From Endomicrobiales bacterium (GTDB lineage Bacteria; Elusimicrobiota; Endomicrobiia; Endomicrobiales; JAFGIL01), in assembly GCA_016929635.1 (NCBI GenBank), contig JAFGIL010000047.1, forward strand, positions 13,606 to 77,605: a stretch of 64,000 nucleotides of DNA. The letters are read 5' to 3'. Below are positions 42,206-61,071 of this stretch, one piece after another (position 1 is the first letter of the stretch; every line of letters begins with the position of its first letter). The notes under the pieces are model-generated. The model saw nothing but the letters and a program-made list of their open reading frames with translations. It did not search any database and was not told the DNA's origin. Position numbers and translations under genes: made by a program.

Positions 42206-43550
42206 AAAAATTCAGCATATTCATTTTGTAGGTATTGGCGGCTCGGGAATGAGCGGCATTGCGGAAGTTCTTCTAAATCTGGGGTACAAGATTACCGGCT
42301 CTGATTTAAAAAGAAGCGATGTAACCGACTATTTAAAAGCAAAGGGAGCAAAGGTTTTTATCGGGCACAAGTCTTCTAACATAAACGGGGCTAACGTAGT
42401 AGTTACCTCAACGGCTATAGGTACTGCAAATCCTGAGGTTAAGGCTGCTAACAGGAAAAAAGTCCCTGTAATTCCAAGGGTGGAGATGCTGGCAGAGCTT
42501 GCACGGTTAAAATATACAGTAACCATTGCAGGCACGCACGGCAAGACCACAACCACATCGCTTACTTCACTGGTTTTAGAGAAAGGCGGATTTGACCCTA
42601 CGATTGTTATCGGAGGCCGCCTTAAAAACCTGAAGAGCGGAGCGAAATTGGGGAAAGGTGAATATCTGGTTGCAGAAGCCGATGAGTCTGACGGCTCTTT
42701 TTTAAAGATTTCTCCTACAATAACTGTCATAACGAATATTGATAACGACCATCTTGATTATTACGGTTCTATCGAAAATATAAAGGATGCTTTTTGTAAA
42801 CACGCAAACAGCGTGCCGTTCTATGGATGCGCTATTGTCTGTACCGATGACCCGAACGTCAGGGAAATTATTCCGGACATCAAGAGGAAGTATTATACAT
42901 ACGGGTTAAAAGGAAATCCTGATTTTACCGTATCTGACGTGAAAAACATTGATTCGGGTTTTACTTTTAACGTCAGGTATAAGGGCAAAAAGCTGGGGAT
43001 GGTTACTTTAAGCGCGATTGGCGAGTATAACGTCCAGAACGCCTTGGCTGCTATAGTAGTGGGCATTGAATTAGGCATACCGTTTGACAAAATATCTTCG
43101 GCTCTGAAAAGTTTTGCAGGTGTCGGCAGGCGTATAGAGATAAAAGGGCAGAAAAAGGGAGTTTTGGTGATAGATGATTATGGCCATCACCCTGCAGAGA
43201 TAAAAGCAACTATAGGCGCTGTCAGAAAAAACTGGCCCGAGCGCAGGCTTATCGTACTGTTTCAGCCGCACCGTTATTCCCGCACAGCACATCTTTACAA
43301 CGAGTTCGCGCAGTGTTTCAATTTAGCCGATAAAGTAAAACTTATGGAGATTTATCCCGCAGGTGAAAAACCAATACCGGGGGTAACCAGCCAGCTGATT
43401 TATAAAAGTGTTAAAAAACACAGCAGGAATATAGAGCATTACAGCGGATTAGAGCTGCTCTTACGCCAGCTTAAATCGAATGATTTGCTTTTAACCCTTG
43501 GAGCAGGCAATGTTTGTCAGATAGGAGAAGAGATATTAAGAAGGATTTAA
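42198..43550 (+). CDS. murC: UDP-N-acetylmuramate--L-alanine ligase
   Basis: HFVGIGGSGMSGIA, AGTHGKTTTT, EADESDGSF, NIDNDHLDYY, DDYGHHP.E, FQPHRYSRT. Confidence 0.97.
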   Translation: MFKKIQHIHFVGIGGSGMSGIAEVLLNLGYKITGSDLKRSDVTDYLKAKGAKVFIGHKSSNINGANVVVTSTAIGTANPEVKAANRKKVPVIPRVEMLAELARLKYTVTIAGTHGKTTTTSLTSLVLEKGGFDPTIVIGGRLKNLKSGAKLGKGEYLVAEADESDGSFLKISPTITVITNIDNDHLDYYGSIENIKDAFCKHANSVPFYGCAIVCTDDPNVREIIPDIKRKYYTYGLKGNPDFTVSDVKNIDSGFTFNVRYKGKKLGMVTLSAIGEYNVQNALAAIVVGIELGIPFDKISSALKSFAGVGRRIEIKGQKKGVLVIDDYGHHPAEIKATIGAVRKNWPERRLIVLFQPHRYSRTAHLYNEFAQCFNLADKVKLMEIYPAGEKPIPGVTSQLIYKSVKKHSRNIEHYSGLELLLRQLKSNDLLLTLGAGNVCQIGEEILRRI

Positions 43551-44431
43551 CCGCCACAATTTCATCGTTAGTTTCTCACCTTAAAGTTAACGAGCCTCTG
43601 AAGAATCATACAACGTTTCACATAGGAGGCCCGGCAAAGTATTTTGTTGACGTATCCGAGAGAGACGAGCTTAAAAAACTTCACGATATATGCCTGCAAA
43701 ACAAAATTTCTTTTTTGATACTGGGCAATGGCTCCAATGTTTTAATAGGAGATGAGGGTTTTGACGGTCTGGTTATGAGGCTCAAGGGTGAGTTTAGTCT
43801 TATAACATCCAGCAGGAATGCCGTTAAGGTTGGTTCCGGAGTCCAGCTCCCCGTGCTTTTACAGAAGTGTTTAAAAAAGAACCTTTCGGGGCTGGAGTTT
43901 TTATCCGGCATACCAGGAACAGTAGGAGGGGCTGTGGTTGGCAACGCAGGCACAAAAGAGGGATGGATTGGGGACAAAGTCGTTGATGTAGAAGTGTTGA
44001 CAAATTCAGGCAGAATTGTAACTTTAAAAAGAAAGGATTTGAAGTTTTCCTACAGGAGTTCTAATTTAAATAATTATATAATAATATCAGCTACCTTACT
44101 CTTGAAAAAAGGCCAAAAAAATGATATTCTTAAAAAGATAAACGGATTGTTGCTGAAGCGCTCAAAAGAGCAGCCTTTAAACGAGTTTAATTCGGGCTCA
44201 GTATTCAAAAATCCCGAGAATAAAAGTGCCGGTGAGCTGATTGAAAATGCGGGATTAAAAGGTTTAAAGTTCGGCGGGGCAAAAATCTCCGAAAAACACG
44301 CTAATTTCATTGTAAATTTTGAGAATGCCAGAGCTTCTGATGTAAAGACACTTATTTCTATAATCCACCAGAAGGTAAAAGAAAAGTTCGGCATTGATCT
44401 GGAACTGGAAATAAAACTTATAGGCGTATGA
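43514..44431 (+). CDS. murB: UDP-N-acetylenolpyruvoylglucosamine reductase
   Basis: HTTFHIGGPA, LGNGSNVL, GIPGTVGGA..GNAG, QP...NSGSVFKNP, SEKHANFIVN; the only available start is a TTG overlapping the murC end. Confidence 0.95.
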   Translation: MSDRRRDIKKDLTATISSLVSHLKVNEPLKNHTTFHIGGPAKYFVDVSERDELKKLHDICLQNKISFLILGNGSNVLIGDEGFDGLVMRLKGEFSLITSSRNAVKVGSGVQLPVLLQKCLKKNLSGLEFLSGIPGTVGGAVVGNAGTKEGWIGDKVVDVEVLTNSGRIVTLKRKDLKFSYRSSNLNNYIIISATLLLKKGQKNDILKKINGLLLKRSKEQPLNEFNSGSVFKNPENKSAGELIENAGLKGLKFGGAKISEKHANFIVNFENARASDVKTLISIIHQKVKEKFGIDLELEIKLIGV

Positions 44432-44433
44432 AT

Positions 44434-44529
44434 CCAGCCCCATAGATTTTTGTTATGGTAACTGGATAATTGTATTTGAAAAAAGTACGTATTTTTTAAA
44501 AGATTTAAGTTTGTAATTAATGGGGCTGG
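44434..44529. mobile_element. MITE-like 96-bp element at the murB/ddl junction
   Basis: Perfect 10-bp terminal inverted repeats CCAGCCCCAT/ATGGGGCTGG flanked by the direct repeat ATGAAT (44428-44433 and 44530-44535). Confidence 0.7.
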
Positions 44530-45465
44530 ATGAATATAAAAAGCTGGCTTAAAAATAAAAAGATAGGCGTTCTTTACGGAGGATTATCAGCAGAGAGAGA
44601 CATTTCTATTCTGACAGGAAAAGCGGTTCTTAAGGCACTTAAGGAAGAAAAGTGTAATGTAGTCGGGATAGATGCGGGAAGGGATAGCGCATCCCAGATT
44701 AAAAGGAGCAGGATTGATTTTGCCTTTATTGCCCTTCATGGTCCATGGGGCGAAGACGGGACCATACAGGGAATGCTTGAGATAATGGGTATTCCTTACT
44801 CAGGATGCGGAGTTTTAGCCAGCTCTTTGGCTTTAAATAAAATTTATTCAAAAAGGATCTTTGATTCACTCGGCATACCTACTCCCAAATGGTGGGTTTT
44901 TAATAAAAAAAATTTCAATGCCAGATTTTTAACTTCACGTTTTCCTCTGGTTATTAAACCTGCTGCCCAGGGCTCGGCTATAGGAGTATCCCTGGTTAAA
45001 GACAAAAAGGGTTTAAATAATGCGGCAAGGCGGGCTTTCAGATTGAACTCTGAAATTATTGCCGAGAAATACATCGGCGGCACTGAAATAACGGTAGGTA
45101 TCTTGGGGGGCAGGGCTTTGCCTGTCATAGAAATAGTCCCTGAGGGAAGTTTTTATGATTTTAAGTCCAAATATAAACCCGGGCAGTCGAAACATATAAT
45201 ACCGCCCCGCTTGCCGAAGAGTGTTATTAAGAATGCCCAGCAGCTGGGTTTAAGGGCTTTTAATGCCCTGGGATGTAAGGCTGTGAGCAGGGTTGATATA
45301 ATAGTGGATAAAAGAAACAAGCCGTGGGTGCTGGAAGTCAATACCGTGCCCGGCATGACCGAGACATCCCTTCTTCCTGATGCTGCCCGTGCCTGCGGAA
45401 TAGGTTTTAGTAAACTGGTGCTGAAAATTATTGAATATTCTTTAAACACGGAGAGATACGGGTAA
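44530..45465 (+). CDS. ddl: D-alanine--D-alanine ligase
   Basis: GGLSAERDIS, LHGPWGEDG.IQG, VIKPA.QGSAIG, YDF.SKY, RVD, LEVNTVPGMT. Confidence 0.97.
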   Translation: MNIKSWLKNKKIGVLYGGLSAERDISILTGKAVLKALKEEKCNVVGIDAGRDSASQIKRSRIDFAFIALHGPWGEDGTIQGMLEIMGIPYSGCGVLASSLALNKIYSKRIFDSLGIPTPKWWVFNKKNFNARFLTSRFPLVIKPAAQGSAIGVSLVKDKKGLNNAARRAFRLNSEIIAEKYIGGTEITVGILGGRALPVIEIVPEGSFYDFKSKYKPGQSKHIIPPRLPKSVIKNAQQLGLRAFNALGCKAVSRVDIIVDKRNKPWVLEVNTVPGMTETSLLPDAARACGIGFSKLVLKIIEYSLNTERYG

Positions 45466-53913: not shown

Positions 53914-54684
53914 ATGATTAACGAAGTAAAAACAACCAGGAATATTTTAAAGCATTCTTTTGACGACCTTATTAAATATACGGAGGTTGACGTTGTAATT
54001 GCGGGTGCAGGCCCGTCCGGGATGATTGCCTCCAAATATTTGGCGGATAATAAGGTAAAAACCCTGCTTATAGAAAAAAAATTAAGCATCGGGGGCGGGA
54101 TCTGGGGCGGCGGTATGATGTTTCCCTACATCCTTGTCCAGAAAGACAGGCGGATTTATGAAATTTTAAAGGATTTCGGAATAAAATACAGGTCGGAAAA
54201 AGACGGATTGGTAATTTCTTCCATCGAGACGGCATCTAAGTTATGTGCGGGCGCTGTAAATGCCGGTGCCAAGATATTTAACGGCATTGCCGTTGAAGAT
54301 GTAATGATAAGAAAAAACAGGATTTGCGGAGTTGTAATTAACTGGGCAGCTGTTGAAGTGGCAGGATTACATGTGGACCCTTTAACCTTGTCCAGCAAAT
54401 TTGTTGTTGATGCCACCGGGCATCCTTCGGAAGTTAGTAATGTTGTTGTGCGAAAGGTAGGCAGGCTTAAGACTCCAAGCGGGAAAATAGAAGGCGAAAA
54501 ATCCATGTGGCTGGAAAAATCCGAAAATCTGGTTGTTAAAAACACGAAAGAGGCTTTTCCGGGGCTTTATGTATGCGGTATGGCAGCTAACGCTGTCTTT
54601 GGTGCGCCGCGCATGGGCCCGATATTCGGAGGGATGTTTCTTTCCGGAAAAAAAGTAGCTGATAAAATATTAAACAAAATGTAG
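53914..54684 (+). CDS. thi4: Sulfide-dependent (non-Cys) adenosine diphosphate thiazole synthase Thi4
   Basis: GAGPSG, GGGIWGGGM.F, LHVDP (His in place of the suicide Cys), DATGH, PRMGPIFGGMFLSG. Confidence 0.93.
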   Translation: MINEVKTTRNILKHSFDDLIKYTEVDVVIAGAGPSGMIASKYLADNKVKTLLIEKKLSIGGGIWGGGMMFPYILVQKDRRIYEILKDFGIKYRSEKDGLVISSIETASKLCAGAVNAGAKIFNGIAVEDVMIRKNRICGVVINWAAVEVAGLHVDPLTLSSKFVVDATGHPSEVSNVVVRKVGRLKTPSGKIEGEKSMWLEKSENLVVKNTKEAFPGLYVCGMAANAVFGAPRMGPIFGGMFLSGKKVADKILNKM

Positions 54685-54768
54685 TGTAGGGCTTTATGCC
54701 CGTAAAAAATAGAGTTAACTAAATATTTAAATTATGATATTTTTACGGCCACAAGGGCCTACACTACA
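54680..54768. repeat. Inverted GTAG-type REP doublet (REPIN-like)
   Basis: Left GTAG-GGC-TTTAT-GCCC-GTAAAAA and right (reverse complement) GTAG-GCC-CTTGT-GGCC-GTAAAAA; outer TGTAGTGTAGG/CCTACACTACA. Confidence 0.7.
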
Positions 54769-54778
54769 ATAAAGATCT

Positions 54779-60929: not shown

Positions 60930-60930
60930 T

Positions 60931-61066
60931 AAATTCCAAATTACAATTTCCAAATTACAAATGGATTCCCGTCTCCAATGACCAACCGCCAAACAGTATG
61001 TTGTTTTGATTTTTGGATTTTTTTATTGGTTATTATTTGGAATTTGTTTTTTGGTATTTGGAATTT
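60931..61066. repeat. Heptad-register long imperfect palindrome (intergenic)
   Basis: Left AAATTCC|AAATTAC|AATTTCC|AAATTAC; right (reverse complement) AAATTCC|AAATACC|AAAAAAC|AAATTCC; terminal 11 bp AAATTCCAAAT/ATTTGGAATTT pair perfectly. Confidence 0.85.
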
Positions 61067-61071
61067 ATCAT

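Follow-up and report, generated by a model that had tools for sequence, protein, structure and literature searches.

In a window of 64,000 nucleotides (nt) from an Endomicrobiales genome, we examined the junction between the murB and ddl genes. The host is a metagenome-assembled genome (MAG) of the Elusimicrobiota (2.23 Mb, 39% GC, 77 contigs, 90% complete), referred to here as G000. In this genome the two genes are separated by a spacer of 98 nt, at a site where the commonest arrangement in related loci is a 4-nt ATGA overlap of stop and start codons. The spacer is bounded by a perfect inverted repeat, occurs once in the genome, and is predicted to fold such that the murB stop codon stands opposite the ddl start. 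We read it as an orphan palindromic insert in the ATGA overlap, the stem of which couples ddl to murB by unmasking the ddl start, and we give this reading, taken as a whole, about an even chance of being correct.

The insert and its empty sites in relatives

The spacer begins with ATCCAGCCCCAT, and its last letters, ATGGGGCTGG, run directly into the AT that opens the ddl ATG. An earlier note on this DNA had described 96 bp bounded by perfect 10-bp inverted repeats, and these are present as the exactly complementary CCAGCCCCAT (44434-43) and ATGGGGCTGG (44520-29). The perfect repeat is in fact 12 bp long, with ATCCAGCCCCAT at 44432-43 and ATGGGGCTGGAT at 44520-31, and when mismatches are allowed the arms extend to 22 nt, with 82% complementarity. 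Also as noted earlier, the element is flanked by a direct repeat, ATGAAT, whose left copy contains the murB TGA and whose right copy contains the ddl ATG; the 12-bp inverted repeat overlaps 2 nt of each copy. Both genes retain their expected ends around the insert. The murB 3′ end reads GGC GTA TGA, with the stop at 44429-31, at a position matching that of the ..IGE-stop ends of MurB in relatives, and ddl opens with ATG AAT ATA AAA (MNIK), the conserved Ddl N terminus among relatives.

The direct repeat would fit a transposition event without counting as evidence of one. Duplication of ATGA is uninformative on mechanism because any split that keeps both genes must duplicate it, and the final AT of ATGAAT doubles as the outer edge of the 12-bp stem. 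The length of the duplication is consequently ambiguous between 2 and 6 bp; it is read equally well as GA (2 bp), the termini then being 12 bp long, or as all 6 bp, with termini of 10 bp. An unrelated palindrome of 111 nt at the relative L191 is likewise flanked by ATGAA.

We located the murB stop and ddl start at 116 related loci (at least 52% Ddl identity, not de-duplicated). The ATGA overlap was found at 78 of them; the remaining junctions are of −1, −8 or −11 or have spacers of 2-19 nt, and a few loci carry spacers of at least 84 nt, all differing in sequence. Scans of metagenomes, genomes and protein databases for closer relatives gave none above 70% Ddl identity. Among Ddl proteins of the large protein collection, the nearest (65-70% identity) come from loci with spacers of 19, 13, 8 and 15 nt (L192, L193, L194 and L225, respectively), and further near relatives have either the unrelated L191 palindrome or the ATGA overlap itself. 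At L216 (65% Ddl identity) the junction GGCGAATGAATATAAAA is one base off the predicted empty site GGCGTATGAATATAAAA, and at L219 (also 65%) the junction GGAGAATGAATATAAAG has the same ATGA overlap. In longer context, L216 reads ATAGGCGAATGAATATAAAA and L219 reads ATTGGAGAATGAATATAAAG; with 102 bp taken out, the window would read ATAGGCGTATGAATATAAAA, which differs from L216 at a single base. The earlier note had proposed an insertion into an ATGA overlap that left both genes intact and had suggested looking for the empty site in relatives. The 78 overlaps, the near-exact empty site in L216 and the same overlap in L219 support that proposal.

A tree of MurB and Ddl, built with IQ-TREE on these two genes and moderately supported, places the window with L192 (19-nt spacer; ultrafast bootstrap (UFBoot) 94) and then with L219 (overlap; 93). 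Because these neighbors have short or overlapping junctions, the window spacer is a lineage-specific gain, with the ATGA overlap as a very plausible ancestor. Two other long spacers have comparable neighbors: G001 (94 nt), the sole other genome of the same GTDB family in the reference set, groups with L195 (8 nt; UFBoot 100), and G009 (84 nt) groups with L216 (overlap; 100). In the same tree G005, from another GTDB family, lies nearer to G001 than G000 does, against the GTDB family that unites G000 and G001; either a two-gene tree misleads at such depth or the family is not cleanly resolved.

Predicted fold and access to the ddl start

The spacer RNA has a predicted minimum free energy (MFE) of −32.2 kcal/mol, and the 12-bp stem dominates the fold. 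None of 200 shuffled sequences was as stable (z −4.2 to −4.6), and in a context of 301 nt the pair probability of the long-range stem is 0.9995. The 3′ arm is almost entirely paired (Table 1), and the earlier suggestion that long-range pairing would bury the ddl initiation region is thus borne out by the fold. The same note had described a local hairpin competing with this pairing. Such a hairpin does exist at 44432-67, but it is outcompeted at equilibrium, where its pair probability is ∼2e-6 against the long-range stem; it may nevertheless form first during transcription. Across the genome, inverted repeats that are perfect over 12 bp or more and have loops of up to 120 nt number 162, compared with 25 in a shuffled genome. 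The terminal 10-mer is not enriched: of 5 exact occurrences genome-wide, 2 are those at murB-ddl, and ∼1.5 are expected.

Little else was detected within the element. There is no open reading frame (ORF) of at least 40 amino acids on its + strand, over 96-100 bp, and the Rfam covariance models returned no family (best scores 16-18 bits against thresholds of 50-140, E at least 0.68). Scans found no sigma-70-like promoter pattern in the spacer and no intrinsic terminator-like site in 44432-44531, with no T run after either hairpin. Local duplication of murB or ddl sequence, whether tandem or inverted, was considered as the source of the insert and rejected, there being no similarity on either strand (z <1).

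The ddl gene lacks a Shine-Dalgarno (SD) sequence at a spacing of 5-10 nt, where GGAG motifs precede starts in the same genome; the sole purine run before it is a GGGG that lies 3 nt from the ATG and within the stem. Opening ddl from −15 to +12 is predicted to cost 11.6 kcal/mol on free mRNA, 5.3 kcal/mol when a ribosome covers the message to stop+5, and 3.1-3.3 kcal/mol when it covers to stop+7..+12. With the Boltzmann factor of 0.45 mol/kcal from PMC4538824, a relief of ∼8 kcal/mol computes to an initiation-rate difference of ∼40-fold. In silico, therefore, the insert has the trait that marks the unmasking class, a ddl start paired with sequence in the footprint of ribosomes terminating on murB. 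The earlier note had held that the insertion uncoupled translation of the two genes. That claim probably points in the wrong direction, since predicted initiation at ddl depends on a ribosome terminating at murB (11.6 to ∼3 kcal/mol).

RNA-phage coat/replicase and the atp operon are classic cases of coupling by unmasking. That ribosomes can couple genes by helping to unfold intergenic structures is established (Tian and Salis 2015; PMC4538824), and the insert resembles the systems described there in that the downstream start is sequestered by sequence within the footprint of the upstream-terminating ribosome, with a predicted relief of ∼8 kcal/mol. It differs from them in that the pairing partner is 88 nt away and that the structure, here a predicted one, comes from an insertion replacing an ATGA junction. 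In the same study re-initiation peaked at the −4 overlap and was measured out to 25 nt only; plain reinitiation across 98 nt would for this reason be an unlikely substitute for the lost overlap.

We propose that ∼100 bp of hairpin-forming DNA entered an ancestral ATGA overlap and duplicated it, with murB keeping its TGA and ddl its ATG. In the mRNA, a perfect GC-rich stem of 12 bp would close the whole spacer and set the murB UGA opposite the ddl AUG, and it would sequester ddl, which itself lacks a usable SD, from −10 to +2. On terminating at murB, a ribosome would hold the 5′ arm in its mRNA channel, melt the stem and free the ddl start. On this scheme ddl would stay coupled to murB, termination-reinitiation at ATGA having been replaced by ribosome-mediated unmasking. 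We infer from the modeled fold and energetics that the stem may form in vivo, may couple the genes by unmasking and may be under selection. The junction would be a natural example of an essential, coupled gene pair that survives insertion at a 4-nt overlap, the hairpin of the insert rejoining stop and start, and if unmasking is true, one coupling mechanism was swapped for another in a single step.

Origin of the insert and rival explanations

Searches of its own genome with the 100-bp element, by blastn-short (word sizes 7 and 11) and nhmmer, returned the element itself alone. A regular-expression search found no further inverted pair of termini within 3 kb anywhere in the genome, and the three remaining copies of the terminal 10-mer all lie inside ordinary coding sequence, none at the end of an insertion sequence (IS). 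Among 104 genomes of the order, the exact inverted-repeat pair turns up in this one alone, as the element itself; a DNA search of ∼400 genomes of the phylum gave no full-length match, only short AT-rich low-complexity ones, and plasmid and phage collections gave no match. A single pattern match among viral contigs falls within GC-rich coding DNA, consistent with chance, and was discarded. The earlier note had called the insert a non-autonomous transposon, MITE-like (MITE, miniature inverted-repeat transposable element), and had suggested searching the genome for other copies and for an IS with the same ends. Neither was found, and these are two of the three observations that the note itself listed as counting against its claim. 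What the insert shares with MITEs is terminal inverted repeats (TIRs), a length of 96-100 bp, a non-coding AT-rich interior and an empty site in relatives; what it lacks is a multicopy family, in a MAG that is 90% complete, and a cognate IS in the genome. It is thus an orphan, MITE-like in form, and a staggered cut of the transposition type is possible. The genome does have repeats of its own, comprising a REPIN-like family, a GC-palindrome family, heptamer arrays and seven Y1_Tnp (PF01797) genes above cut-off, and the murB-ddl element belongs to none of the repeat families.

Part of the stem is found again in G001. The pattern TCCRGCCC-N(1-120)-GGGCYGGA occurs once in G000 and once in G001 and is absent from G009, G005 and G002, and in both genomes the 8-bp stem TCCAGCCC/GGGCYGGA starts 0-1 nt after the murB stop. 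The chance of an 8-mer match at the same offset is estimated at <1e-4. In G001 the stem reads TCCAGCCC-GGA-GGGCCGGA, with a loop of 3 nt, and lies outside the multicopy repeat of that genome, which comes next. Otherwise the two spacers are barely alignable (z 3.1-3.4, driven by the common GC stem). One reading is that the stem predates the G000/G001 split, in which case the gene tree needs three or four losses; such losses are plausible, a palindrome between direct repeats being easily deleted. Alternatively, related inserts reached the same site twice. Under either, the common stem argues against a simple recent MITE hop.

The junction has also received other palindromes. In three relatives (G001, G002 and G009) the long spacer consists of the genome's own multicopy palindromic repeats, and the junction has thus been invaded repeatedly. 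Positions 22-95 of the G001 spacer have ∼90 matches in G001, as hairpin copies whose arms are tandem heptads of the TGCAAAT type; the arms of the G002 spacer (GTAAGNG heptads) have ∼68 matches in G002, and the 73-bp core of the G009 spacer has ∼50 in G009, over 30 of which span nearly its whole length. L226 has GTAAGNG-type arms at the same junction. The 100-nt spacer of G016 is single-copy, as in the window. Strong folds are predicted for most of the long spacers found here (z −3 to −8). The window spacer has no period-7 pattern, and a hidden Markov model (HMM) of the G001 family gives no match to it. Heptad palindromes in tens of copies each occur in G001 (L196-L215), G009, G002 (L004), L226 and L191, with variable loops and often beside start codons. 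Their heptad types are genome-specific (TGCAAAT, TTGAAAT/CAGATT, GTAAGNG and AACTTTC), and no description of the class was found in the literature searched.

Several points weigh against a coupling stem. The idea that all long spacers bring stop and start together was rejected, as the window and L112 alone do so, within 2-3 nt in the fold. In the other long spacers the folded stop-start distance is 9-23 nt, no better than in shuffles, and the coupling idea therefore cannot extend to the whole spacer class. One sequence of the element is known, hence there is no covariation, and the G001 stem adds one A·C mismatch alone and no compensatory change. An origin of the stem before the G000/G001 split would mean, on the gene tree, its loss in three or four lineages between them. 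A 12-bp GC stem 0-1 nt past the stop codon could itself hinder termination on murB; REP hairpins near stop codons reportedly do so and lower upstream expression. The perfection of the stem could also mean merely that it is young and neutral. A bolder version, which we consider doubtful, is that the GC stem is a selected cis-regulatory RNA device that sets the MurB:Ddl ratio, ddl being initiated only once murB has been terminated, and is kept in both genomes of the family although its surroundings have all changed, and that the junction in non-Endomicrobiaceae Endomicrobiales is a recurrent landing site where unrelated hairpin inserts, in at least eight lineages, are tolerated or favored as re-creating coupling of an essential gene.

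The insert may instead be a genuine MITE, a TIR element of 96-100 bp brought in by a transposase cutting with a 6-bp (or 2-bp) stagger, whose family and IS have been lost or left unassembled and which would be selfish, neutral or mildly harmful. Its perfect termini of 10-12 bp, its AT-rich non-coding interior, its length of ∼100 bp and the ATGAAT repeat would all be expected of such an element, as would empty-site alleles among relatives. The multicopy palindromes at the same junction in G001, G002 and G009 and the ATGAA flanks of the 111-nt L191 palindrome also favor it; copy number may be as low as 1 per genome (PMC10969869), and the MAG is just 90% complete and in 77 contigs. We nevertheless think it unlikely, given the single copy found by blastn-short and nhmmer, the lack of a second terminus pair within 3 kb, the coding-sequence location of the other 10-mers, and the absence of the element elsewhere in the 104 order genomes, the ∼400 phylum genomes and the plasmid and phage collections. 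Gene survival forces four of the six bases of the supposed target-site duplication (TSD), the other two being stem sequence, and a stem present once, at this very site, in G001 is strange for an element that disperses. That common stem (TCCRGCCC..GGGCYGGA, once each in G000 and G001 right after the murB stop, and absent from G009, G005 and G002) is what recommends an old, locus-specific RNA hairpin predating the split of the two genomes. It would serve mRNA processing or stability, as an RNase III site or a 3′-exonuclease block between the mur and ddl-fts parts of the dcw transcript, and its loop would have grown to ∼76 nt in G000. REP/ERIC-type hairpins in operon spacers stabilize upstream mRNA, which counts for such a role, and the clade has many long spacers with strong folds at murB-ddl (z −3 to −8); outside the stem, the two spacers cannot be aligned beyond z ∼3. 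An origin of this kind is improbable in our view, since lineages with junctions of −4, 8, 17 and 19 nt lie between G000 and G001 (UFBoot 93-100) and several independent losses would be implied. There is moreover no U-tract, so that the hairpin is not a terminator, there is no covariation, and the overlap of the G000 3′ arm with the ddl AUG points to translation rather than to stability alone.

A template switch (quasi-palindrome correction) could have used the sequence following the murB stop as template and placed its complement immediately ahead of the ddl ATG, in a pre-existing spacer, leaving a young and neutral stem. Template switching makes perfect hairpin stems in one step (PMC8794818), the last 10 nt of the spacer (ATGGGGCTGG) are the unmatched, G000-specific part in the alignment to the G001 spacer, and the distal arm resembles the 3′ arm of the local hairpin (TATGGTAACTGGAT vs AATGGGGCTGGAT). 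We hold this to be very unlikely, because it explains 10 of the 102 bases and leaves ∼88 nt and the exact empty-site match unexplained; the G000-G001 alignment on which it leans is weak (z 3.1-3.4), and the HMM of the G001 repeat family does not recognize the window spacer. Least credible of all, to the point of being nearly dismissed, is the view that an unremarkable AT-rich spacer has its inverted repeat by chance, or that the assembly is in error. A shuffled genome does still give 25 perfect 12-bp inverted repeats with loops of up to 120 nt, but the arms here are GC-rich in a 39% GC genome and stand exactly at the stop and the start, the fold has a z of −4.2 to −4.6, and the same stem recurs at the same site in G001. 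Against an artifact, the region sits in the middle of a 79-kb contig and both genes are intact.

Bacterial MITEs in operon spacers, such as Correia of Neisseria and ERIC/IRU of enterobacteria (PMC10969869), resemble the insert in their length of ∼100 bp, TIRs, AT-rich non-coding interior, short direct repeat, co-transcription with neighboring genes, long hairpin fold and empty sites in relatives. Unlike them, the insert has no family (one copy, and none in ∼500 related genomes) and no cognate IS, its TSD is largely forced by gene survival, and its stem recurs at this locus in a second genome, again in single copy. REP/REPIN sequences, served by RAYT (Y1) transposases, also have GC-rich palindromic arms in operon intergenic DNA, and the genome has seven Y1_Tnp genes and a REPIN-like family; the arms of the insert, however, have no internal REP hairpin, are unlike the family A/B repeats and are single-copy, and no Y1_Tnp is linked to the element. 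The heptad palindromes of Endomicrobiales (G001, G002 and G009) occupy the same site at 84-163 nt, form strong hairpins and have sister lineages with short or overlapping junctions, but their arms are tandem heptads (TGCAAAT, GTAAGNG and TTGAAAT types) in tens of copies, whereas the insert has neither heptads nor copies. The murB-ddl insert opens no new class of system. The repeated occupation of one dcw junction by unrelated palindromic repeats across the order may interest students of bacterial repeats and of operon evolution in uncultured Elusimicrobiota.

Features of the locus and other repeats of the genome

The features of the two genes and the spacer are collected in Table 1.

Table 1. 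Coordinates of the murB-ddl region, as positions in the window
Feature	Position	Strand	Basis or remark
murB (UDP-N-acetylenolpyruvoylglucosamine reductase), 305 aa, ends ..KLIGV-TGA	43514..44431	+	ORF; Pfam FAD_binding_4 and MurB_C, full length
Left ATGAAT copy, holds murB TGA (44429-31)	44428..44433	+	A+TGA is the ancestral murB end, as in L216, L219 and L191
5′ arm of perfect 12-bp stem, ATCCAGCCCCAT, directly after the stop codon	44432..44443	+	Its TCCAGCCC is common to G001, at the same position
Alternative local hairpin, ATCCAG-CC-CCATAG...TATGG-TAA-CTGGAT	44432..44467	+	ΔG −10.6 kcal/mol alone
AT-rich 76-nt interior without ORF, heptad periodicity or detectable relative	44444..44519	+	Sequence searches
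Small central A/T palindrome, TTTGAAAAAA / TTTTTTAAAA, around TACGTA	44475..44501	+	Repeat search; apical helix of MFE fold
3′ arm of stem, ATGGGGCTGGAT, spans ddl −10..−1 and A and U of AUG	44520..44531	+	Unpaired probability of arm 0.02
Right ATGAAT copy, ddl codons 1-2 (Met-Asn)	44530..44535	+	Sequence
ddl (D-alanine--D-alanine ligase), 311 aa	44530..45465	+	ORF; Pfam Dala_Dala_lig_N and Dala_Dala_lig_C, full length

Upstream, murC and murB overlap by 37 nt (window 43514-43550) if murB starts at the TTG at 43514, and the relative L191 has the same 37-nt murC/murB overlap together with a MurB of 305 aa. Elsewhere in the window, a second perfect 12-bp inverted repeat with a 114-nt loop, TAAATTCCAAAT, lies at 60930-61067.

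Among the repeats of the genome, REPIN-like family A is ∼100 bp long and has at least 25 copies, one of them at window positions 54676-54773 (G000:C72:68281-68378). Its unit consists of TGTAGTGTAGGGCTTTATGCCCGTAA, an AT-rich stretch of ∼40 nt and then TTACGGCCACAAGGGCCTACACTACA, with a small GC hairpin within each arm. The GC-rich palindrome family CCCGTTCCCGGAACGGG-CCTGGG-CCCGTTCCGGGAACGGG has about a dozen copies in G000, including C47:9601-9687, C47:24369-24437, C3:17499-17583 and C3:11823-11908; a Y1 transposase gene (C47:9159-9431) lies ∼200 bp from one copy, an arrangement suggestive of a REP/RAYT pair. Tandem heptamer arrays of CAGTAGA/CAGCAGA at G000 C59:12527-12663, C32:1952-2045 and C65:33244-33295 recall the STRR heptamer repeats of cyanobacteria.

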